From the IMG/VR virus record IMGVR_UViG_2778261177_000006: a stretch of 37,010 nucleotides of DNA. One strand, given 5' to 3'. This document shows, one piece after another, positions 21,010 to 30,837 of this stretch (position 1 is its first letter; each line of letters opens with the position of its first letter). The notes under the pieces were generated by a model. It was not told the origin of the DNA, did no database searches, and worked only from the letters and a program-made list of their open reading frames with translations. The translations under genes were made by a program, and so were the position numbers. This stretch comes from a virus. Taxonomy: Duplodnaviria; Heunggongvirae; Uroviricota; Caudoviricetes.

Positions 21010-22761
21010 ATGATTCAGGACGCTTTTGTGCGCCAGCGTGCGCGGCAACTTTACTGGCAGGGTTATCCGCCCGCAGAAATATCACGTCTGATGGGAATAA
21101 ACCCGAACACGATTTATGCGTGGAAAAAACGCGACCAGTGGGATGAAACGCCACCCGTGCAGCGTGTCACGCAGTCCATTGATGCGCGCCTCATCCAGCT
21201 TACTGAAAAACAGAATAAAACAGGCGGTGACTTTAAGGAAATAGACCTGCTGACCCGGCAGCTTAAAAAGCTGCATGATGGCCAGCCGGATGTGATGGCC
21301 GCAGGAAAGAAAGGCCGGGCGAAAAAACTCAAAAATCATTTCACGCCGGAACAGATTGCCGCACTGCGGGAAAAAATCATCAGCAGGCTGGAGTGGCATC
21401 AGCGGGGCTGGTTTGACTCCCTGACCCTTTGCAGGGAAGCCGGGATACGTAACAGGATGATCCTGAAATCCCGACAGATTGGGGCGACCTGGTATTTTGC
21501 ACAGGAAGCACTGCTGATGGCGCTGCGTGACGATGTGGCGCAACCTTACCAGCGTAACCAGATTTTTTTGTCTGCGTCGCGTCGTCAGGCGTTCCAGTTT
21601 AAAAGCATTATTCAGAAGGCCGCGGCTGAAGTTGATGTGGAGCTGAAAGGGGGTGATAAAATCATCCTCTCCAACGGCGCAGAGCTGCATTTTCTCGGCA
21701 CTTCTGCTGCGTCGGCACAGTCCTATACGGGCAATTTTTATTTTGATGAATTTTTCTGGGTCAGTCGCTTTGCTGAACTGCGCAAGGTGGCTGGCGCTAT
21801 GGCAACCCTCAGCGGACTGCGGCGCACCTACTTCTCCACGCCATCCACCGAAACGCACGAGGCATACGCCTACTGGAACGGCGACCGCTGGAACGAGAAA
21901 AAGGCCTCGCATAAACGCCAGCGTTTTTCTGTGGACTGGAAAACGCTGCATAACGGACTTATCTGCCCTGACCGGACATGGCGGCAGATTGTCACGCTGG
22001 AAGATGTGGTTAATCACGGCTGGAAACACACCGATATTGACGAAATCCGTGATGAAAACACCGAAGACGAGTTCCTCAATCTCTACATGTGTGAGTTTGT
22101 CCGCGAAGGGGAATCGGCATTTAACCTGAATATCCTGATTGGCTGCGGCGTTGACGGATACGACGACTGGAAAGACTGGAAACCTTTTGCTCCCCGCCCG
22201 ATGGGAAATCGTCCGGTATGGATTGGGTATGACGCAAACGGCAGCAGTGGCAACGGCGACAGCGGCGCTGTGTCCGTGGTGGTTCCTCCGGCTGTTCCTG
22301 GTGGCCGTTTTCGAACGGTGGAGACGCGACGCGTTCAGGGGCTGGAGTTTGAAGAACAGGCCAGAGTCATTGAAGAGTTCACGTGTCGCTACAACGTGGA
22401 ACACATCGGTATTGATGTGACGGGCGGGAACGGGGAGGCTGTTTATCAGATAGTGAAACGGTTTTTCCCTGCTGCTATTCCGTACACCTTCACGCTGTCA
22501 TCAAAACGGTCGCTGGTACTGAAAATGCTGCAAATAATGCGTGCCGGGCGGTGGGAATACGATCGCGCCGAACGCGAGCTGGTCGCGGCCTTTAACGCCG
22601 TGCGTAAGGTGAAAACACCGGGCGGCTTTATCACTTACGAAACGGACCGCGCGAGGGGGATCAGCCACGGCGACCTTGCGTGGGCAACCATGCTTGCTGT
22701 CATTAACGAACCGATTGGCGGCGAAGGAGAAAACGAGCGTTTCACGGTTATGGAGTTCTGA
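21010..22761 (+). CDS. P: Terminase large (ATPase) subunit P (583 aa)
   Basis: About 580 aa with ATPase-like N-terminal half and acidic nuclease-like C-terminal half; divergent from O as in P2. Confidence 0.9.
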   Translation: MIQDAFVRQRARQLYWQGYPPAEISRLMGINPNTIYAWKKRDQWDETPPVQRVTQSIDARLIQLTEKQNKTGGDFKEIDLLTRQLKKLHDGQPDVMAAGKKGRAKKLKNHFTPEQIAALREKIISRLEWHQRGWFDSLTLCREAGIRNRMILKSRQIGATWYFAQEALLMALRDDVAQPYQRNQIFLSASRRQAFQFKSIIQKAAAEVDVELKGGDKIILSNGAELHFLGTSAASAQSYTGNFYFDEFFWVSRFAELRKVAGAMATLSGLRRTYFSTPSTETHEAYAYWNGDRWNEKKASHKRQRFSVDWKTLHNGLICPDRTWRQIVTLEDVVNHGWKHTDIDEIRDENTEDEFLNLYMCEFVREGESAFNLNILIGCGVDGYDDWKDWKPFAPRPMGNRPVWIGYDANGSSGNGDSGAVSVVVPPAVPGGRFRTVETRRVQGLEFEEQARVIEEFTCRYNVEHIGIDVTGGNGEAVYQIVKRFFPAAIPYTFTLSSKRSLVLKMLQIMRAGRWEYDRAERELVAAFNAVRKVKTPGGFITYETDRARGISHGDLAWATMLAVINEPIGGEGENERFTVMEF

Positions 22762-23807
22762 TGAGCAGAAAAAATAAAAAAGTGCGCATGAGTTCACGCA
22801 TTGATCTCGCTGATGCGCTCAGGAAAGAATCATCGCTCAGTGCATTCACATTTGATGGTCCTTATCGCCTGACCGGGCATGACCTGCTGGACAATATGTA
22901 CTGTGCTGATAACGGGCGGTGGTATGAAACCCCGGTGGACTGGTACGGTCTGGCAAGAGCTGCCCGGCAAACGTCCTGGCATCAGTCTGCGCTTTACTTT
23001 AAGCGTAATGTATTGCTCGGCTGCTATATTCCGCATCCGCTGCTTTCCCGGCAGGATTTCTCGGCGCTGGCGCTGGACTGGTTTGTGTTCGGTAACGCAT
23101 TCCTTGAGCTTCGGAGCAATATGCTCGGCGAACCGCTTAAATTACGGCACGCCCTGGCGAAATACATGCGACGCGGAAGCGATCTTGAATCATGGTGGTA
23201 TGTGCAGGATGGCAAGGACGCGTTTCAGTTTCGCCCTGGCAAAGTGTGCCACCTGATGAATCCTGACATTAACCAGGAAATCTACGGCATGCCGGAATAT
23301 CTCGGCGCATTACTCTCGGCCAGCCTGTCTCATTCGGCGGACATGTTCAGAAAACTGTATTACGACAACGGATCCCACGCCGGGTGTATCATCTACATCG
23401 GTGCAGCGCAGGTAAACCGCGAAAGCATGGACTCCCTGAAAGAAACGCTACAGGGTGCACGTGGTGGTGGTGCGTTTAAAAACGTGCTCATTCATGCGCC
23501 CAACGGGGGCAAAGAAGGTGTGCAAATTTTGCCGTTCCAGCAGATCACCGCAAAGGATGAGTTCATGAATGTTAAGGCGGCATCCCGTGATGATGTGCTG
23601 GCTGCGCACCGCGTTCCGCCGCAACTGATGGGGGCGATGCCGGGTGAAAAAAGTGCGTTTGGTGATGTGGAAAAGGCCGCGCGGGTTTACGCAATTAACG
23701 AGCTGATGCCCGTTATGGAGGCCATGAAGCACATCAATGACTGGCTTGGCGAAGAGGTGATCCGTTTTAATTCTTATGCTCTTCTTGATGAAAAAACAGC
23801 CCCGTGA
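22761..23807 (+). CDS. Q: Portal protein Q (348 aa)
   Basis: Start overlaps the terminase stop (TGATG); size matches P2 gpQ. Confidence 0.9.
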   Translation: MSRKNKKVRMSSRIDLADALRKESSLSAFTFDGPYRLTGHDLLDNMYCADNGRWYETPVDWYGLARAARQTSWHQSALYFKRNVLLGCYIPHPLLSRQDFSALALDWFVFGNAFLELRSNMLGEPLKLRHALAKYMRRGSDLESWWYVQDGKDAFQFRPGKVCHLMNPDINQEIYGMPEYLGALLSASLSHSADMFRKLYYDNGSHAGCIIYIGAAQVNRESMDSLKETLQGARGGGAFKNVLIHAPNGGKEGVQILPFQQITAKDEFMNVKAASRDDVLAAHRVPPQLMGAMPGEKSAFGDVEKAARVYAINELMPVMEAMKHINDWLGEEVIRFNSYALLDEKTAP

Positions 23808-23828
23808 TGGGGCTGTCCTTTTTACCAG
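23796..23828. terminator. Bidirectional terminator between convergent portal gene and orphan gene
   Basis: Stem cagcccc/ggggctg with an A run on one side and a T run on the other; contains the portal stop codon. Confidence 0.6.
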
Positions 23829-24346
23829 AGTTGAACCATTTTCTGGGTGCCGTCAGGCTTGAGATTATCAATTTCAGAGAGAACGTAATATTGAATGGCT
23901 TCACAAACGGTGGTGTATGGTGAATTACCTTCTTTAAGTGGCACGATATTATTATTAACGCGAACCTGTATTTCATCGTTATACATTGCGATCGAAAGAG
24001 GAGTATGCACGAAGGCGACTTCGCCAGGTGTGTCGTCAACCACTGTCTCAATGCTGAAAATCAGTTTTCGCTCATCATTGCCGCCCCTTGCTTTGGGGGT
24101 AGCGGCAGGAATCTGAGATAAAGGCATTCTGCGAAACCCTTCAGCCGTTTCCAGTCCGCATGAAACGTAATGCTGGCGATTACCGTCGCTATCCGTCCAT
24201 GTCTGTGATGGCAGCTCCAGAGAGATTTCATAAGCATCAACAATTCCCTGGGCAATGCGTACAAGCGGGGTCAGGTCTTCATTGCGGCGAAAACTCTCCT
24301 TTACCTGATCTCGTTTTTCTCGTAACTGCTTGTAATTAATGACCAT
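23822..24346 (-). CDS. Hypothetical protein, about 174 aa (start at MVINYKQL with GGAGG RBS); function unknown
   Basis: Clean ORF with strong RBS, own terminator, convergent with portal; no family recognised; GC visibly lower than the structural genes. Confidence 0.55.
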   Translation of the reverse strand: MVINYKQLREKRDQVKESFRRNEDLTPLVRIAQGIVDAYEISLELPSQTWTDSDGNRQHYVSCGLETAEGFRRMPLSQIPAATPKARGGNDERKLIFSIETVVDDTPGEVAFVHTPLSIAMYNDEIQVRVNNNIVPLKEGNSPYTTVCEAIQYYVLSEIDNLKPDGTQKMVQLW

Positions 24347-24448
24347 AGAACAGCCTCCATTGATTTCTTTGCTCGTATTTTGCACTTATGAAGTGTGGTC
24401 GGCAAGGTGCCGCATCACTGACGCGCTTCGCTTGTCTGCTGCTTCGCC

Positions 24449-24471
24449 GGGGCATAAAAAATTTATGCCCC
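24449..24471. promoter_or_regulatory. Perfect palindrome ggggcataaa-aaa-tttatgcccc upstream of the orphan gene
   Basis: 10-bp inverted repeat with 3-nt spacer read directly from the sequence, in the promoter-proximal region of the 23822-24346 gene. Confidence 0.4.
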
Positions 24472-24844
24472 GACTCTCCAGCTCCTGTATCAATCAGATA
24501 ATTTCGCGACGTCTTCCGACTTATCGCTATCATCGACGGCCAGACTCTTACACAATCCCGCCGCGCTGACTGCATGTTCTCGCCGCCTCAGTGCGATTTT
24601 GACGGCCTTACCTTTCATCCCATCAAATCAGAACACCTTACGTCTTTTTCACGCTCAGCGTGAGCGATACAGCCATTTTGTTGTGTCGCTGCGACATCGT
24701 TCAGGGAATGCTATTTACCCCCTGAAACGCGGGCTGTTCCCCCGTCACCTGCGCGCAGAAAAAGCGCGTTTTTTTGTGCACGCACGGATCCTTGACGGAT
24801 CCAGCCGCCATGCGGGCCGGAAGGGTAAAAAGTCGTTCAAAAAA

Positions 24845-24871
24845 ATTGTGCAAATTTGTGCACTTTTGTGC
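24845..24871. repeat. Three direct TTGTGCA repeats phased at 10 bp
   Basis: ttgtgcaaat / ttgtgcactt / ttgtgcaaac in tandem, one helical turn apart, next to the terminator hairpin. Confidence 0.6.
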
Positions 24872-24877
24872 AAACAA

Positions 24878-24900
24878 AAAGCGCCCCTGAGGCGCTTTAG
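24878..24900 (-). terminator. Rho-independent terminator of the parMR-containing operon (agcgcc-cctg-aggcgct)
   Basis: GC stem directly after the last minus-strand gene, followed on the minus strand by a T run. Confidence 0.6.
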
Positions 24901-24932
24901 TGTTTTATAGGTTGTGTATATTGGCTGGGTCC

Positions 24933-25196
24933 TTATCCTGCTGTGCTTTCAACTGATGAGGGGAACAAAATCTTTTCATCAAACCCTGCATTCATATCAT
25001 GGACAGCAACACACCAATCCATTGACGAACGATTATCAAGAGCCTCCATGATTTCATCCATGCGGCGTAGGTCATACAGGTAAATGCTTTTATCGCCAAT
25101 GGTGTAAAAACCAATTTTTTTCGGTGATGGACAGCGATCAAGAACGTCCTGTAATTCGCTCAACCATGCTTGTTCTTTTTTTGTCAAAGTTGCCAT
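24933..25196 (-). CDS. Hypothetical protein, about 87 aa (start at MATLTKKEQ)
   Basis: Last gene of the parM-parR operon; tightly packed with the upstream ORF; no family recognised. Confidence 0.45.
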   Translation of the reverse strand: MATLTKKEQAWLSELQDVLDRCPSPKKIGFYTIGDKSIYLYDLRRMDEIMEALDNRSSMDWCVAVHDMNAGFDEKILFPSSVESTAG

Positions 25197-25197
25197 A

Positions 25198-25629
25198 TCA
25201 CTCTCCTTTGATGCCAATGTCTACAGCTTGGCAAGCCTCTTTGGTCACCCAGTCAATAGCGTCTTTCCATACTCCAGTTTCGACTGGCGGATTCTCACGC
25301 TTTACCTGTTCATAGAAACGCACCGCTCTAACCAGTCCATCTGGTACTGCTGGCGCTGGCGGCTCTCGATACATAGGGATAACACGTCGCGGGTCCGCGT
25401 ATTTATCTGGCGGACACTGAAATATCTCACCGAAACCATACTGCTTGACATCACGCAGTTCCTCATCATCAGTCCATGCAACAGGTTTCGCTTCCAGCGA
25501 TGTGAGTGCGATTTTCAGTGCGATTAACATATTGTGATCGTTTTCATCAAGGCCAAACGGGATGTCTTCACGACACGATTCAAGGTCTGCAATTTTGCGT
25601 TGTAACCATTTTTTGGGGATAGTTGCCAT
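25198..25629 (-). CDS. Hypothetical protein, 143 aa
   Basis: Co-directional and closely spaced after the parR-like gene; no family recognised. Confidence 0.5.
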   Translation of the reverse strand: MATIPKKWLQRKIADLESCREDIPFGLDENDHNMLIALKIALTSLEAKPVAWTDDEELRDVKQYGFGEIFQCPPDKYADPRRVIPMYREPPAPAVPDGLVRAVRFYEQVKRENPPVETGVWKDAIDWVTKEACQAVDIGIKGE

Positions 25630-25648: not shown

Positions 25649-25963
25649 TCACTCTGGGAAAAATGACTGAATGTTCTTTCTTATCTCGCTAGTGCTGTGA
25701 TTGCTTCCGGTGGCAGGTGCGCTGGCATATTTACTCTGAATATTATTCTTGGCTGGCGCAGCTCCTTCTTCCGGCCATTCGGCCAACCAATAGGCAAATG
25801 CAGGATCGCGTTTTATGAGTGCCAGCCCGGCCAGAAAGGCCGCGCGTTGCGCGCGGCTGCGTTCAGAGGCTGGCAGGCTGTCGAGGTAATTACACGCCTC
25901 CCGTTCACTATTGACGGCGACTGGCTTCAGATAGAAACTTATCCGTCTGGTTGGTGTCGTCAT
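25649..25963 (-). CDS. parR: ParR-like ribbon-helix-helix centromere-binding protein (about 104 aa, start at MTTPTRRISF)
   Basis: RISFYLKPVAVNSEREACNYLDSLPASERSRAQRAAFLAGLAL closely parallels plasmid R1 ParR (RTIAFKLNPDVNQTDKIVCDTLDSIPQGERSRLNRAALTAGLAL); AAGGAG RBS; immediately downstream of parM. Confidence 0.75.
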   Translation of the reverse strand: MTTPTRRISFYLKPVAVNSEREACNYLDSLPASERSRAQRAAFLAGLALIKRDPAFAYWLAEWPEEGAAPAKNNIQSKYASAPATGSNHSTSEIRKNIQSFFPE

Positions 25964-25967
25964 TGGT

Positions 25968-26927
25968 TTACTCCTTGTCCATTGCGTACAAACCATTGAC
26001 CAGAGCAAACTGTGGCACCCCGTCCGCGATGAAAGTCGCATTAACTCCGCAGGCTTCGCGGATAGCGGGTGCCACAATCTCCGCCCCGCCACCGACAACC
26101 ATCACCCGCCCGTAACCCGAAAAACCCGCCAGCGCGCGGATCACTCGTTGTTTCAGCGTTTCTTCCTTTTCACGAATAACCGCCATCAGGCTGTCGTAAT
26201 GCGCGTCATTGTGGATGTGCTGGCGCAGCCAGGCTTCATCGTGGCGATGTTCGATAATGGTATTGGCGATATGGTGACTGGTACGCATACCGTTAGTGGC
26301 CATCACCGACAGTACGGCATCGGCCATCAGGGAAACGCCTACGTGTGGATCGCAAAACACCTGGCTGATACCTGCCAGTTGTCCCTGGACCTTTGCCACA
26401 TCCAGCGTGGTTCCGCCTAAATCCACAATCAGCAGGGATTCAAACGGACTCATGTCAGCCAGTGCTTTAAAACCAGCCGGAATGGATTCAGGCATAACCC
26501 GTACGTTACGGATAGTGAATGCTTTTCCGTTCTGGTACGCCACCGGGCGCATGACGTTTGCTTTTTTGCGGTTGATGTTGGCCATGTCCGGCTGTGCGTT
26601 TGTGTCGAAATATTCGCTCAGTGGCAGGGTGACAACCACATCCACTTCCTGTGGTGTGATGCCTGATTTGACCAGCGCGTGATGAATGGCAATGACATTC
26701 ACATCGCTGTACTGGTATTGCGTGTCGGTCGTCTGGACAAAGCGATCGCTGACCGGATCAAAACCATAGCGCACGCCATCAAGCATGTAGTTTGCGGGCT
26801 GCGTGCCACCGAACGGCGCAGACCATTCCGACTTGAAGCTGTTCGGGCTGATGGCGTTGCGGCGTTCGCCGTTCTCAGTCCATGCCAGCTTGATGTTGGT
26901 GGAGCCGTCGTCGATACAAATTTTCAT
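25968..26927 (-). CDS. parM: ParM/StbA-family actin-like segregation ATPase (319 aa)
   Basis: Near-complete colinearity with R1 ParM landmarks: IDDGSTNIKL, SPNSFK, YSDVNV-A-HHAL, KKAN, VMPESIPAG, DLGGTTLD, GVSL, VMV-GGGAE, LVNGLY. Confidence 0.85.
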   Translation of the reverse strand: MKICIDDGSTNIKLAWTENGERRNAISPNSFKSEWSAPFGGTQPANYMLDGVRYGFDPVSDRFVQTTDTQYQYSDVNVIAIHHALVKSGITPQEVDVVVTLPLSEYFDTNAQPDMANINRKKANVMRPVAYQNGKAFTIRNVRVMPESIPAGFKALADMSPFESLLIVDLGGTTLDVAKVQGQLAGISQVFCDPHVGVSLMADAVLSVMATNGMRTSHHIANTIIEHRHDEAWLRQHIHNDAHYDSLMAVIREKEETLKQRVIRALAGFSGYGRVMVVGGGAEIVAPAIREACGVNATFIADGVPQFALVNGLYAMDKE

Positions 26928-26958: not shown

Positions 26959-26997
26959 TTTACGGGATTCTGAAATCCCGTTTTTGCCTGTTTTGTG
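26959..26997. repeat. 38-bp repeat unit 1 (tttacgggattctgaaatcccgtttttgcctgttttgtg) with internal palindrome, upstream of parM
   Basis: Contains inverted repeat acgggatt-N-aatcccgt followed by a T-rich tail; near-identical copy 73 bp away. Confidence 0.6.
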
Positions 26998-27003
26998 TGC
27001 GCT

Positions 27004-29826
27004 TCATATATCGCGGCGCGTTTTTTGCTCATTTACGGGATTTGTGAATCCCGTTTCTGTCTGTTTTTTGTTTCCACTGGTCAGGCCACCCCGCAGCAGG
27101 TCTGCTTTGCGGCGGGCACGTTCAGTGGTTTCACTGATTCTCTGTGCGTGCTCTGCGTCGCGGATGGCGCGCAGCATGTCAGAAAGCACGGTAACGGGTG
27201 TTTTCATGGTGTTCTGGTCCTGCTGAAGTGTGGATGCCAGGCGTGTGGCGGCTTCAGGGTCTGATGCCCCCAGCTGTGCCAGATAGCTGGCGACCGGGTT
27301 ATGGCGGATCTCCGTGCTGCTTACACCGTGATTACGGCTCAGGCGCTGCCAGAGCTGCGTGATTCGGCTGTCCGGGCGGGTATCCGGTTTGCGTACAATT
27401 TCAAATCCCTGCGGTGCAATGATGCTGCCGTCAACGTACAGACTGCCGCCCCGTAACAGGTGCTGCATTTGTTGTTCACCGATATGCAGGCCGAGAGATT
27501 CAGCAGACTCCCGCCATTCTCTAGCGAGTAATTCGTGGTTATCAGGCAAAGGCCGCTGCTGTTTGCGGCTCTGTGTCCAGCTCTGCATTTCATCACTGCT
27601 GTTTTTTGCCTGTTTGTCACGAAGCGAACGCATCAGCGCCCGGCGTTCGTGCCGTTTCAGTGAGCGCATCCATTCGTTCACTTCAACGCCGTCAGGGAGC
27701 TGCGGCCACGGTGCTGGCCGTTCTTCCGGCTGTTCTGTCCCGTTGTTGTCCGTTTCCTGTACACGGGGACAGTTATTGCCACGAGTCCAAGGGGCGGCAG
27801 GGCCGCCCTGAAGGTCAAAACCATTTTCGCGGGCGCTGTCTTCCGCTTCCGGTTTGCGTCTTACCAGCTTCCAGTTATCCGGATGCGTGCACACACGGGA
27901 GGATTCCCCGATGAGTGGTGACCAGATCCCGTAAATCTGTACGCCCTGCTCGCCGTAATCGTTCAGCTCATCTGCGAGGTCGTAGGCGGTGCGAATCAGG
28001 TAGTCCTTGCGTGGAACAAGTACGCCACCCTGTTTTTCAATGTAGGAGGCAAAACACCCGGCATCAGCGGCAGCAAGAACCGCATCCATTGCGTCATCCT
28101 TCAGCCGTTGCGGGCCTTCCGGGTTGCGTGCCATCTGGCTGGCAAGGCGGCGGAGTTCACGCCACACCTGACGGGAGGGGATGCCAAAGAACTGGAACTG
28201 GCGGACCCGGTGAAGGCGCGCCCAGCCGATGGCGCGCTCCACGCTCTCGGCCATTGATTTACCTGTTTCGTGGTCAACGCGTGGCTTGCCCGTTTTCGGG
28301 TCGATGCCATCCACGGCGCGGCTGTCCAGGTTCTTTCCGATGTAGGTCGCGATATAGCTGGTTGGTGTGCCTTTTGAGCCGTCGACATACTCCACCTTAA
28401 AGCGCGGAGTAATATCATTGCCGAGCTCGTGGCGGTCTTCCTGAATGGCAATATCGCGGGTGATGGCCACGATGCTGTCGATTTCTTCCGGATGTGCAAA
28501 GACCATCATATGCCAGTGCACTGTGCCGTCATGGTGAGGCTCCACCGTGCGGATGCCATACCAGCGAAGACCGTCGCGGTTCAGTTTTTTGCGGACCGCT
28601 GCAAAAAACGTGTTAACCAGGTAATCGCTGGAGTCGCGCATGGTGGCCCCGTTCCATCTGGGATTCGGATGACCGTTCTCTGTTGTGGCGTGGTACTTCG
28701 AAGGGGTGGTGACAGTCAGAAACACCGCTCTGTCGCCACGGGCTTCGGCCAGAAGTTCCAGCCCCTTCATGGTGGCCATCATTTCTGCCTTACGGTGAAC
28801 CGGGTTACTTACTCCCGCGTAATACACTGTCTCGAGATCAATCGTGAACCCGTCTTCGTTTTCCAGCATGAAACTTTTCAGGAAGTCGCGTGTTTTCTCG
28901 CGCTGTGCGCGAAACTCGCTTAACGCGTCCTGGCTCAGATAGGGCGATGTTTTTCTGGAAACCAGACAGGCGGCACGGAGTTGTTCTTCCCGCCACTCGC
29001 AACGTAACAGCCACAGTTTGCGTTTCCACCATTCCGCACAGGTCAGACGAAGGATTGCGCCCGGCAGCAGCTCCGTGTCCGGTTCGTTCCTCCGGTCTTT
29101 GTCTGTTGTCAGTGCTTCGTAATGCGGCGGCACGGTGTGCAGGTGTAACGCCATGCGGGCCAGCATCTGATACGCCTTCAGTGCCACCTCCATGGTCAGC
29201 TCACCATCAGTCGCGCCAAAGCCATCGCAGAGTTTTTCGAAGGTGCTGCTGAACATCGCCGCCGTCATGGTGGCCAGCGTCTGTATCTGGTGTTTGTTGA
29301 GCTGCGGCAGGTAAAGCAAATCATCCAGGCGTTCACGTCCGGCGAGGGAGCGATAACCCGGTGTCAGCCAGCGACTGTCGGCACGGTTAATGCGATCGAA
29401 TATCTTGCGCAGGGTTCCGCGTGCATAGCGTTCTGCCTGCCAGCTCTTTTTGCCTTTCCGGCGATCGGCTTCCTGTTTTTTGCGCAGGAAGGAGAGGTGG
29501 CGAATAAGCGGATCGCGCAGATAAGACGGCAGCAGGCGCAGCGAGGCCATGGCTTCATCCACCGCGCCGCGTGCCTGTTTTCTGGCGTCTCCTGCCAGTG
29601 TGATGGTTTTGTCCTGTTTTTCCTGTGCGTCCAGGCTTTTATTAATCAGGTTGCCCAGCGGCGTGGCGGAGAACGCCGCATCAGCCATTTCCTGGCGGCG
29701 CTCGTTCTCTGCCCGGTAGGCATCCAGCCAGGAGGAAAGCGCGGATTCAGGAGCGGGGATCCCCGTTCCTTCACGCCCCACTGCGTGGCGCGGTTGTTGC
29801 CAGTCCCTGATGTACTCTGCCGTCAT
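27004..29826 (-). CDS. A: Replication initiation endonuclease A (rolling-circle initiator, P2 gpA family), 940 aa
   Basis: HUH-type motif (HWHMMVFAH) and tandem active-site tyrosine motif (YIATYIGKN) in the translation; largest early-region ORF. Confidence 0.9.
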   Translation of the reverse strand: MTAEYIRDWQQPRHAVGREGTGIPAPESALSSWLDAYRAENERRQEMADAAFSATPLGNLINKSLDAQEKQDKTITLAGDARKQARGAVDEAMASLRLLPSYLRDPLIRHLSFLRKKQEADRRKGKKSWQAERYARGTLRKIFDRINRADSRWLTPGYRSLAGRERLDDLLYLPQLNKHQIQTLATMTAAMFSSTFEKLCDGFGATDGELTMEVALKAYQMLARMALHLHTVPPHYEALTTDKDRRNEPDTELLPGAILRLTCAEWWKRKLWLLRCEWREEQLRAACLVSRKTSPYLSQDALSEFRAQREKTRDFLKSFMLENEDGFTIDLETVYYAGVSNPVHRKAEMMATMKGLELLAEARGDRAVFLTVTTPSKYHATTENGHPNPRWNGATMRDSSDYLVNTFFAAVRKKLNRDGLRWYGIRTVEPHHDGTVHWHMMVFAHPEEIDSIVAITRDIAIQEDRHELGNDITPRFKVEYVDGSKGTPTSYIATYIGKNLDSRAVDGIDPKTGKPRVDHETGKSMAESVERAIGWARLHRVRQFQFFGIPSRQVWRELRRLASQMARNPEGPQRLKDDAMDAVLAAADAGCFASYIEKQGGVLVPRKDYLIRTAYDLADELNDYGEQGVQIYGIWSPLIGESSRVCTHPDNWKLVRRKPEAEDSARENGFDLQGGPAAPWTRGNNCPRVQETDNNGTEQPEERPAPWPQLPDGVEVNEWMRSLKRHERRALMRSLRDKQAKNSSDEMQSWTQSRKQQRPLPDNHELLAREWRESAESLGLHIGEQQMQHLLRGGSLYVDGSIIAPQGFEIVRKPDTRPDSRITQLWQRLSRNHGVSSTEIRHNPVASYLAQLGASDPEAATRLASTLQQDQNTMKTPVTVLSDMLRAIRDAEHAQRISETTERARRKADLLRGGLTSGNKKQTETGFTNPVNEQKTRRDI
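27032..27070. repeat. 38-bp repeat unit 2 (tttacgggatttgtgaatcccgtttctgtctgttttttg) inside the 3' end of gene A
   Basis: Same architecture as unit 1; lies within the last ~20 codons of the A ORF. Confidence 0.6.
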
Positions 29827-30501: not shown

Positions 30502-30680
30502 GGTGTGGCCTCGTACGTAGTAAGTTTTAAAAACTCACCATCCAGAGGTGGAAAACTCGGGGTGGTGAGACGTACAGGGTTTCCACAACCGGCTACGCAC
30601 GAATCCGGCCCGACCGAAGTCGGCCCTGTACGCCCCACCATAATTCTGACGCGAAAAAGACGTGGCGATACGGTACGCAC

Positions 30681-30701
30681 AAAAAAACCGCTGGCGCGGT
30701 T
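30681..30701 (-). terminator. Minus-strand rho-independent terminator (aaccgc-tggc-gcggtt plus T7 on minus strand)
   Basis: 6-bp stem preceded on the plus strand by an A7 run, i.e. hairpin plus U tract when read on the minus strand. Confidence 0.55.
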
Positions 30702-30837
30702 GTGCGCGTGCATAGTCAGCGGGGTGGAAATCCCGGCACCCGTTTTATGAGGTGCAGCGGAAATGTAACCTGACTGATTGCGGCATGGCAAGCGGTTTTT
30801 TTGTGAGAACGGCATACTAAAAAATCCTGATACTGCT

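Follow-up and report, generated by a model that had tools for sequence, protein, structure and literature searches.

Organization of the Locus

The window, i.e., the whole stretch of 37,010 nucleotides that was analyzed, is a P88-like E. coli prophage (Xuanwuvirus, P2-family). By megablast, P88, PhiR44_2 and Xuanwuvirus showed 95–96% identity with it over 80–93% of 25 kb. The features of the locus are listed in Table 1. The identities of gpA, ParM, ParR and the portal protein are backed by Pfam or by the annotation of the matching records, and the pair upstream of the two small genes consists of an actin-like ATPase and a DNA-binding adaptor, so that the parMR-like character attributed to it in a sequence-only reading of this DNA was well founded. 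That reading had also noticed two small open reading frames, of 143 and 87 aa, tightly packed behind parR before a terminator and lower in GC than the phage core. Both frames were found on the minus strand, at the positions given in Table 1, and the rest of the description was accurate as well. A single nucleotide separates the stop of parM from the ATG of parR. The 19 nt between the stop of parR and the ATG of orf143 contain the Shine-Dalgarno sequence AGGAGAGGAG, and the stop of orf143 lies 1 nt before the ATG of orf87, with AAAGGAGAG directly upstream. The hairpin, which sits within the conserved backbone, closes the gene string gpA-parM-parR-orf143-orf87. No sigma-70-like promoter and no terminator was found on the minus strand between parM, parR, orf143 and orf87 by a crude consensus scan, a search that a weak or non-sigma-70 promoter before parM or orf143 could escape. 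Judging from the spacing, orf143 and orf87 are probably co-transcribed with parMR, and the timing of their expression is likewise deduced from it.

The GC content of orf143 and orf87 is 45.6%, vs. 53.5–54.6% for parR and parM and 54.4% for the phage core, and the difference is also seen at third codon positions (GC3 of 0.38–0.42 for orf143/orf87 vs. 0.53–0.63 for parR/parM). Read as its longest ORF, orf87 would begin at a TTG (25217) and have 94 aa; this version was rejected, as the homologues all begin at the ATG. Plus-strand ORFs of 45, 46, 63 and 99 aa overlapping the region were set aside on minus-strand evidence alone, because the minus-strand frames bear homology and purifying selection. 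An Rfam scan of the whole window gave no match in the orf143/orf87 region.

Table 1. Features of the gpA-gpQ region in the window (positions in nucleotides; a dot marks a feature without strand).
Feature	Position	Strand	Remarks
gpQ, portal	22761..23807	+	ORF; portal annotation in matching records; other edge of the gpA-gpQ hotspot
cos-proximal non-coding backbone of P88-like phages	24413..24897	.	right border of the cargo slot
hairpin terminator, bidirectional	24878..24898	-	9-bp GC-rich stem, then T-run; 35 nt past the orf87 stop
orf87	24933..25196	-	87 aa, acidic, pI 4.7; ST64T Orf-87 / PHROG 1714 family
junction GACATTGGCATCAAAGGAGAGTGATATG	25194..25221	-	orf143 end D-I-G-I-K-G-E, stop, 1 nt, orf87 ATG; probable recombination joint
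orf143	25198..25629	-	143 aa, acidic, ATG start; three-module mosaic
parR, StbB-type adaptor	25649..25966	-	PF10784 3.9e-25; phrog_2515 3e-51; left border of the cargo slot
parM, actin-like ATPase of plasmid R1 type	25968..26927	-	StbA_N 7e-82; ParM C-terminal domain 1e-68; R1 ParM (PDB 1mwk) 2.3e-92
gpA, replication endonuclease, P2-like	27004..29826	-	PF05840 1e-128; same-strand gene upstream of parM

A Variable Slot in the gpA-gpQ Hotspot

The gpA-gpQ locus of P2-like phages was defined as a diversity hotspot, where about one quarter of these phages have a partition module (Rousset et al., 2022, PMC9122126). The arrangement of StbA, Plasmid_stab_B and two hypothetical proteins already appears in Table S5A of that study. 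Here, orf143 and orf87 lie between gpA and gpQ, beside cos, and they vary among close relatives: they are cargo of this cos-proximal hotspot. Their right border, the non-coding backbone, is kept among P88-like phages whatever the cargo (megablast query positions 614–1098), and the record of Xuanwuvirus P884B11 begins at about position 24825 of the window. Among 36 parR-bearing viral contigs, at least 10 alternative gene sets stand between parR and the portal gene, in a slot of 1.1–3.4 kb. In P88 itself, parR is followed by a ClpX-zinc-finger-like gene and another gene. Defense genes encoded by prophages are what this hotspot is best known for, and this would argue for a defense role of the cargo.

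Two Proteins of Phage Families

Remote-homology searches placed both proteins in PHROG families. Orf87 matched phrog_1714 (1e-50, residues 1–87 of 87 aligned), and orf143 matched phrog_660 (1.8e-43, residues 1–142 on profile positions 3–143 of 193). Profiles of the two families gave nothing below E = 1 against PDB sequences, and Pfam, NCBIfam and PADLOC scans of orf143 and orf87 returned no matches. The dN/dS of orf87 is 0.02–0.09 at pS up to 0.19, which indicates strong purifying selection; together with the PHROG matches, this establishes that the two frames are conserved coding genes.

Orf87 is 60% identical, over its full length, to ST64T Orf-87 (tblastn) and 71% identical to gp43 of Chivirus FSL SP-030, annotated as "similar to ST64T Orf-87". 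Structure prediction was run on the monomers. The model of orf87 is confident, with a predicted topology α1-β1-β2-α2-α3-β3, after which comes the conserved tail FPSxVESTAG at the C-terminus; a Foldseek search of BFVD with this model found a single unnamed homologue and no known fold. The protein always ends in S-T-A-G, and G87 is invariant in 58 sequences, its codons varying synonymously. Owing to this invariant C-terminal glycine, a ubiquitin-like or beta-grasp modifier was considered, and rejected as the fold is not a beta-grasp. An exhaustive profile search of 1.84 billion representatives revealed no fusion of orf87 with a Pfam domain; the few longer matching proteins, devoid of such a domain, resemble read-through products or mis-called starts. 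Orf87 is a small acidic cytoplasmic protein with an uncharacterized fold. Its family occurs in temperate as well as in virulent phages: homologues were detected in Chivirus FSL SP-030 (gp43), in Avunavirus Av-05 (gp127) and in virulent Klebsiella siphoviruses. In virulent phages they stand in runs of small same-strand genes, and the early-left operon of ST64T includes orf87, which comes after abc1/abc2.

Orf143 is a helical protein made up of three modules, a mosaic of the EaA/Ea22 type. The N module (aa 1–48), of the EaA/DUF550/DUF551 type, ends at a hinge ALxSLEAxPVAW. The middle module (about aa 50–92) is followed by a second hinge, PPAPxVP, and the C module (about aa 95–143) by the tail GIKGE. 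The structure model is of low confidence (pLDDT 70). The gene is under weak constraint and is a pseudogene in strain DEC5E, where parMR and orf87 stay intact. Both proteins of the pair are acidic (pI 4.7 and 4.9) and hydrophilic. Among EaA/DUF550/DUF551 proteins of ParMR-less phages the N module is frequently seen, and some homologues that share modules with orf143 bear PF13935 or PF04448. Variants of Ea22 are themselves modular, with variable N, middle and C modules (PMC10834534). Orf143 shows this mosaic build and also the place before the next "ea" gene, with an IKGE-stop junction.

Cassette Exchange at the orf143-orf87 Boundary

The junction between the two genes holds the Shine-Dalgarno sequence of orf87. 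The 1-nt gap before orf87 was observed in 76 of 83 loci, and most of the otherwise unrelated genes upstream of orf87 end in ...GI(R/G)IKGE, with near-identical DNA; the C-terminus of lambda Ea22 is AGIRIKGE. Between positions 24930 and 25345, the window is 93–97% identical at the DNA level to lambdoid and P22-like phages without ParMR, in which an Ead/Ea22-like gene precedes orf87 with the identical 1-nt spacing. Some relatives have an XF1762-family gene inserted between orf143 and orf87, and in a Pectobacterium P2-like phage orf87 comes straight after gpA, without parMR. Orf87 moves as a single-gene cassette behind the "...IKGE-TGA-N-ATG" junction, which is probably a recombination joint. This boundary, shared with lambda Ea22, is a clear example of a conserved stretch that is at once ribosome-binding site and probable recombination joint, by which single genes would move among lambdoid, P22-like and P2-like phages.

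Origin, Expression and Possible Role

The cargo slot extends from the parR stop to the cos-proximal terminator, inside the gpA-gpQ hotspot. We propose that the P88-like lineage filled it with accessory genes that lambdoid and P22-like phages have in their "ea / exo-xis / nin" pool, and that the ALxSLEAxPVAW hinge within orf143 and "...GIxIKGE-TGA-N-ATG" before orf87 served as joints. Expression of both genes most likely depends on read-through of the gpA-parMR transcript, with translational coupling, and their products might bind a protein of the host or of a competitor during lytic development, without catalysis. We assign a probability of roughly 0.7 to this explanation as a whole, i.e., exchangeable cargo, acquired and expressed by read-through, that encodes early modulators. 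The molecular role taken by itself is more tentative, at somewhat less than even odds: an early-expressed protein that modulates the host or competing phages, in host takeover or counter-defense. A lytic-cycle role is suggested by the presence of orf87 homologues among the early genes of strictly virulent phages, and this presence favors counter-defense or host takeover over prophage-encoded exclusion. Such a widespread and constrained family, with its invariant C-terminal glycine and its members in virulent and temperate phages, is a reasonable candidate for host-takeover and counter-defense screens.

The genes could instead be expressed in lysogens and protect them from incoming phages, as an anti-phage defense or superinfection exclusion system like old and tin of P2. 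They sit in a hotspot where several unannotated gene sets were shown to defend (PMC9122126), an antiviral function is predicted or demonstrated for many unknown genes of P2/P4 hotspots (PMC13586616), and a low GC content such as that of orf143/orf87 is typical of morons. We nevertheless hold this reading to be unlikely. PADLOC-DB v2, at E up to 1, gave zero families for the five proteins tested (orf143, orf87, parR, parM and orf187), and no nuclease, NTPase, transmembrane or other effector-like domain was found in orf143/orf87. Prophage defense also makes little sense for a protein with homologues in strictly virulent phages. Furthermore, the genes lie downstream of gpA, a lytic early gene, on the same strand and with no promoter detected, and they do not form a fixed two-gene system, since orf87 pairs with many unrelated upstream genes.

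Modulation of the lysis-lysogeny choice, as by lambda Ea22 (pro-lysogenic) or Orf61/63 (pro-lytic), is a second reading. Genes of the exo-xis region have been reported to affect lysogenization and induction (PMC7093339, PMC10834534). The closest DNA relatives of our locus lie in exo-xis/ea regions, beside genes annotated as Ead/Ea22-like, and the GIxIKGE tail of orf143 is common to lambda Ea22. Yet this tail of eight residues is all that hhalign could align between the orf143 family and lambda Ea22 (probability 0.3%); orf143 had no match with Pfam Ead_Ea22 (PF13935 / IPR025153) at E up to 1, and hhalign detected no similarity between the orf87 family and Ea8.5. Moreover, orf87 is found in virulent phages, and these do not decide for or against lysogeny. 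Such a role is quite improbable for these two genes.

A long shot would be that orf87 is a counter-defense protein of a new fold, with its free C-terminal S-T-A-G as the active element. An E1/Cap2-like conjugating enzyme, or a C-terminal-processing enzyme of host immunity, could for example bind it as a decoy substrate or as a competitive ligand. If true, this would explain the occurrence of orf87 in the early regions of virulent and temperate phages alike. Searching the literature for the protein accessions and for a function of EaA/Ead yielded no relevant match and some spurious ones, and a preprint on an accessory-gene screen (10.1101/2023.04.06.535777) does not mention the orf143 and orf87 families.

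Independence From the Partition Module

The sequence-only reading had left two options for orf143 and orf87: unrecognized partners of the segregation module, or an independent cargo function such as exclusion or anti-defense. As accessory partners of ParMR, they would for example regulate it, modulate the filament or serve as a centromere co-factor. Their position on the same strand, tight behind parR in one terminator-bounded string, speaks for such a role, and in 20 of the 36 parR loci the gene next to parR opens with an N module of the orf143 type. The co-occurrence data largely refute this role all the same. Of 5426 complete E. coli genomes, 1187 have ParMR, and only 42 of these 1187 have the orf143-orf87 cargo in context; E. 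coli MS8345 and O104:H4 carry the locus at 99.9–100% identity. Conversely, ParM is absent within flanks of up to 6 kb in 70 of 79 orf87-bearing viral contigs, and 44 of 49 parR-bearing contigs have no orf87. A consistent co-occurrence with ParM and ParR is thus lacking. The frequent N module near parR is attributed to shared descent of the backbone and not to function. It is also common in EaA/DUF550/DUF551 proteins of ParMR-less phages, and in DEC5E parMR persists beside an inactivated orf143. Given the independent occurrence, the different composition and the DNA relatives in phages without ParMR, orf143 and orf87 are interchangeable accessory genes and not part of the segregation machine, the partnership being very improbable. 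The second option holds as far as independence and cargo status in the gpA-gpQ hotspot (PMC9122126) are concerned, its functional part being subject to the odds given above.

A toxin-antitoxin or addiction pair that adds to the partition system in stabilizing the element, as in many plasmids, would fit two small, translationally coupled genes by a partition locus, but is hardly credible: both proteins are acidic, neither Pfam nor PADLOC revealed such domains, there is no fixed pairing (many unrelated genes precede orf87, and the XF1762-family gene separates the two in some relatives), and orf87 remains intact where orf143 is inactivated (DEC5E).

Thus, the cargo behind parMR turns over independently of parMR, and genes trailing parMR in P2-family prophages should not be annotated or modeled as partition components. 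The ParMR module itself was found at 1441 chromosomal places vs. 2 plasmid places. Conserved palindromes lie upstream of parM, two of them of the form ACGGGATT-N4-AATCCCGT; they could be candidates for parC.

Comparison With Known Systems

The neighboring ParM and StbB-type ParR are true counterparts of those of plasmid R1. The parMRC of R1 is a self-contained two-gene plasmid operon, whereas the module described here belongs to an integrated prophage, with gpA immediately upstream and unrelated cargo behind it. Other gpA-gpQ hotspot cargos of P2-like phages occupy the same site, from the replication gene A to the portal gene Q and by cos, and their turnover among close relatives is as high as at the parR slot. 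The genes old and tin of P2 are defense genes, said to be expressed from the prophage. Compared with them, orf143 and orf87 have no detected defense domain or promoter of their own, they are placed behind gpA-parMR on the same strand, and orf87 has homologues in virulent phages.

With lambda Ea22, the exo-xis genes and the "ea" genes of P22, orf143 has in common its modular mosaic build, and with EaA/DUF550/DUF551 proteins its N module. Lambdoid and P22-like phages display the same gene order, [Ea22-like]-[orf87]-[EaA-like], and the same GIxIKGE tail. Orf143 differs from lambda Ea22 in that it does not have the long central coiled coil, and from the exo-xis and "ea" genes of lambdoid phages the pair differs by its presence in a P2-family phage. 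Finally, members of the ST64T Orf-87 / PHROG 1714 family have the same length of 87 aa, and at the family level orf87 is not different from them: all that is new about this protein is that it lies behind parMR, in a phage of the P2 family.

Host Element and Setting of the Cargo

From about 1500 to 25000, the window is 95-96% identical, over 80-93% of the length, to PhiR44_2, P88 and the Xuanwuvirus P884B11, and this match to Escherichia phages identifies it as a P88-like member of the P2 family (Peduoviridae). The terminase and portal genes on the plus strand converge with the P2-type replication gene gpA, which points toward the same region from the minus strand, and this places the two small genes orf143 and orf87 in the cos-proximal interval between gpA and the portal gene gpQ. 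Rousset et al. 2022 (PMC9122126) singled this interval out as a diversity hotspot of P2-like phages, counting 1,650 arrangements in E. coli, and noted that a putative plasmid-partition system occupies it in about one quarter of these phages.

The locus is ordinary gpA-gpQ hotspot cargo of the P2 family, drawn from the accessory-gene pool of enterobacterial phages. Dozens of E. coli genome sequences contain the same arrangement (at 100% identity for MS8345, MS10860 and TUM13770, 99.9% for E. coli O104:H4), which already appears in a published table, catalogued but not studied; the DEC5E copy of orf87 (RefSeq WP_000224220) is 100% identical to the window protein. Both genes fall in existing, uncharacterised PHROG families. 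Another variable gene of the region is orf187 (174 aa when read from the ATG, GC 45.7%), found in some P88-like phages only; it matched phrog_5091 (8e-66) and gave no match in Pfam or PADLOC.

Features of the cargo region and modules of orf143
Feature	Position	Strand	Remarks
terminase	21010-22761	+	runs toward cargo region
portal	22761-23807	+	runs toward cargo region
orf187	23822-24385	-	second variable gene, between portal and conserved cos-proximal segment
hairpin terminator	24898-24878	-	9-bp GC-rich stem, then T-run; 35 nt past orf87 stop
orf87	24933-25196	-	from ATG
boundary junction	25194-25221	-	...GIxIKGE-TGA-N-ATG; precedes orf87 behind many unrelated genes
orf143	25198-25629	-	ATG start
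orf143 N module	aa 1-48		then hinge ALxSLEAxPVAW
orf143 middle module	about aa 50-92		then hinge PPAPxVP
orf143 C module	about aa 95-143		
parR	25649-25966	-	Pfam Plasmid_stab_B, 3.9e-25
parM	25968-26927	-	StbA_N, 7e-82; plasmid R1 ParM structures, 2e-92
gpA	27004-29826	-	P2-type replication gene; PF05840, 1e-128

Coordinates, gaps and hairpin agree with an earlier description of the cargo as two small, tightly packed ORFs after parR, followed by a terminator. The gap between gpA and parM is 76 nt and that between parM and parR 1 nt; the 19 nt between parR and orf143 contain the Shine-Dalgarno sequence AGGAGAGGAG, and orf143 and orf87 are 1 nt apart, with AAAGGAGAG. A mechanical call starts orf87 at an upstream TTG (94 aa); all 39 aligned homologues have an ATG start and a length of about 87 aa. 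A scan by simple consensus match found neither a promoter nor a terminator in the minus-strand intervals between these genes. Judging from the spacing, orf143 and orf87 are probably co-transcribed with parMR. The lower GC remarked on earlier also holds, with 45.6% for the pair (GC3 0.38 and 0.42) against 53.5-54.6% for parR and parM (GC3 0.53-0.63) and 54.4% for the structural core.

Three TTGTGCA repeats (ttgtgcaaatttgtgcacttttgtgcaaac) at 24846-24875 adjoin the terminator, in a conserved cos-proximal non-coding segment, and may bind terminase or another protein. Two Rfam matches above gathering score lie on the minus strand upstream of the prophage gpA region, a C4 antisense RNA (30558-30645, 77.5 bits) and the Hfq-binding sRNA IsrK (30681-30755, 62.2 bits).

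Origin of the Cargo and the Boundary Junction

Positions 24930-25345, which comprise orf87 and the 3' third of orf143, are 93-97% identical to lambdoid and P22-like phages, and the similarity ends 3-4 nt beyond the orf87 stop codon. The same 87-aa gene stands 1 nt behind an 'Ead/Ea22-like' or 'Ea22' gene in Salmonella phage VSe13 (Lederbergvirus), where it lies in the early-left (ea) region, and in Escherichia phage vB_EcoS-689R5, where it lies in a nin-like region; ParMR was not found near it in either phage.

The gene directly upstream of orf87 was extracted in 83 loci. These genes encode 45 to 765 aa and include many unrelated sequences, among them the XF1762 family and, in one locus, gpA; the spacing before orf87 is 1 nt in 76 of the 83. 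Most of them terminate in ...GI(R/G)IKGE, encoded by the near-identical DNA GGCATT(C/G)GCATCAAAGGAGAGTGATATG. Lambda Ea22 ends in AGIRIKGE too, and the rest of this protein has no detectable relation to orf143 (hhalign probability 0.3%). The junction doubles as the ribosome-binding site of orf87 and is most plausibly a homologous-recombination joint. Conserved boundary sequences are an established idea in lambdoid phages. As the junction is kept behind unrelated genes, orf87 moves as a single-gene cassette. Some close relatives (L005, 2899-3390; also L085 and L087) carry a 163-aa XF1762-family gene exactly between orf143 and orf87, and this gene likewise terminates in ...GIRIKGE, which shows reuse of the junction. 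In Pectobacterium sp. B2J-2 (L141, 3699-6261), a member of another genus, an orf87 homologue of 54% identity stands at this hotspot position too, immediately after a P2-type gpA and with no parMR between them.

The alignment of orf143 homologues showed three independently recombining blocks, whose nearest relatives in tblastn differ. The N module is common to EaA, DUF550 and DUF551 proteins of P22-like phages, N15 and HK140; the middle module is 86% identical to 'EaA' proteins of phages 19-1-2 and 24-2-1; the C module matches proteins of Stx phages, mEp460 and even an Actinobacillus phage. The first gene past parR opens with an orf143-type N module and then diverges in 20 of 36 parR loci. We infer that the hinge after the N module is the left recombination joint and that this module belongs to the P88-like backbone.

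The orf87 Family and Its Proposed Role

The orf87 protein matches phrog_1714 over its full length (1e-50). A word-indexed search gave 143 clusters, and all organism-named ones come from Enterobacterales hosts (Escherichia, Salmonella, Klebsiella, Edwardsiella, Pectobacterium, Tatumella and others). An exhaustive profile search, clustered at 50%, gave 195 representatives; almost all are free-standing proteins of 78-94 aa, and the few longer ones contain no Pfam domain. The family is under strong purifying selection (dN/dS 0.02-0.09 at pS up to 0.19; pN 0.2-0.34 in comparisons with saturated synonymous sites). With a pI of 4.7 the protein is acidic, and it is hydrophilic as well. In an alignment of 58 members that extends to about 30% identity, only W11, G34 and the last residue, G87, are invariant. 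Family members end in ...FPxxVxSTAG. The last four codons (S-T-A-G, 24933-24944) differ synonymously among loci, thus the STAG end is conserved at the protein level and not merely through the overlapping TAAGGAG ribosome-binding site of the next gene. The free C-terminal Gly had suggested a ubiquitin-like modifier, which was rejected when the beta-grasp fold test failed.

By tblastn, orf87 was found in 79 of 50,697 phage records. On the temperate side, the carriers include P22-like phages (ST64T 'Orf-87', phage L, Emek) as well as lambdoid ones; the strictly virulent carriers include Chi-like siphoviruses (FSL SP-030 gp43, BSPM4, phage 35 and others), members of the Vequintavirinae (Av-05 gp127) and further large myoviruses, along with virulent siphoviruses of Klebsiella. 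The gene lies there in runs of small same-strand genes. In ST64T it belongs to the early-left operon, downstream of erf, abc1, abc2 and eae. The common denominator of these phages is early lytic development. P2 gpA belongs to an early lytic operon, and orf87 is downstream of gpA in the window. In the best-supported reading, to which we give a probability of roughly 0.4, orf87 would be a small protein with no enzymatic activity that serves host takeover or counter-defence by binding, at an early stage of infection, a factor of the host or of a competitor.

Since virulent phages keep orf87, neither prophage defence nor lysogeny control can be its primary role. Prophage-encoded defence is unlikely for the cargo as a whole: the gpA-gpQ location would suit it, and many unknown genes of this hotspot are reported to defend, but PADLOC gave no matches, effector-like domains are absent, the cargo is oriented behind gpA, and orf87 has homologues in virulent phages and no fixed partner. 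An exo-xis-like modulator of the lysis-lysogeny decision, in line with where the genes come from and with the Ea22-type tail, is slightly less probable again, as homology to Ea22 or Ea8.5 is lacking and the virulent-phage homologues speak against it as well. The remaining interest lies in the orf87 family itself, with its confident predicted orphan fold, invariant C-terminal Gly and distribution over temperate and virulent phages.

Independence from ParMR

The sequence-only reading had offered two roles for the pair, partners of the segregation module or independent cargo. ParMR, the pair of ParM and StbB-type ParR, is present in 1,187 of 5,426 complete E. coli genomes (at least 80% of 1,279 bp), whereas a 1,001-bp probe across the cargo and its two flanks was at least 80% covered in only 42. 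Among the best-scoring IMG/VR loci, mostly from E. coli, 44 of 49 with parR lack orf87, and 70 of 79 with orf87 lack ParM within up to 6 kb of available flank, an upper bound for a few loci because some contigs are short. The interval after parR measures 1.1-3.4 kb in the 36 parR loci that include the portal gene, and holds at least 10 gene sets (ClpX-zinc-finger-like, Rrf2-like, ASCH-like, XF1762-family, several unknowns and others); P88 itself has a ClpX-zinc-finger-like gene and another ORF here. Homology to P88-like phages picks up again in the non-coding cos-proximal segment 24413-24897, so that the slot extends from the parR stop to the terminator. The base composition of orf143 and orf87 is unlike that of parMR. 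In DEC5E, a premature stop interrupts orf143 at codon 63; parM, parR and orf87 are intact.

This variability after parR favors independent cargo, and the co-occurrence data contradict a partnership with ParMR, which is very improbable. The same co-occurrence and partner-variability data make a toxin-antitoxin pair more improbable still.

ParMR and Known Partition Systems

Two perfect palindromes, ACGGGATT-N4-AATCCCGT, are located 73 bp apart at 26962-26981 and 27035-27054 (0.12 expected by chance); the former falls upstream of parM, within the 76 bp that separate it from gpA, and the latter within the 3' end of gpA. At least one copy occupies the same position upstream of parM in 39 retrieved loci, and it is also kept where ParR is only 52-69% identical. 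The palindromes are candidates for a parC centromere or a ParR operator.

In the 1187 of 5426 E. coli genomes that carry it, the R1-type ParMR (25649-26927) occupies 1441 chromosomal places and 2 plasmid places. Being almost exclusively chromosomal, it resides on integrated prophages, and maintenance as a plasmid prophage is therefore unlikely as its general role. Alternatively, ParMR might position replicating phage DNA, by analogy with AlpAC of the Corynebacterium prophage CGP3, which has this function (PMC4446434).
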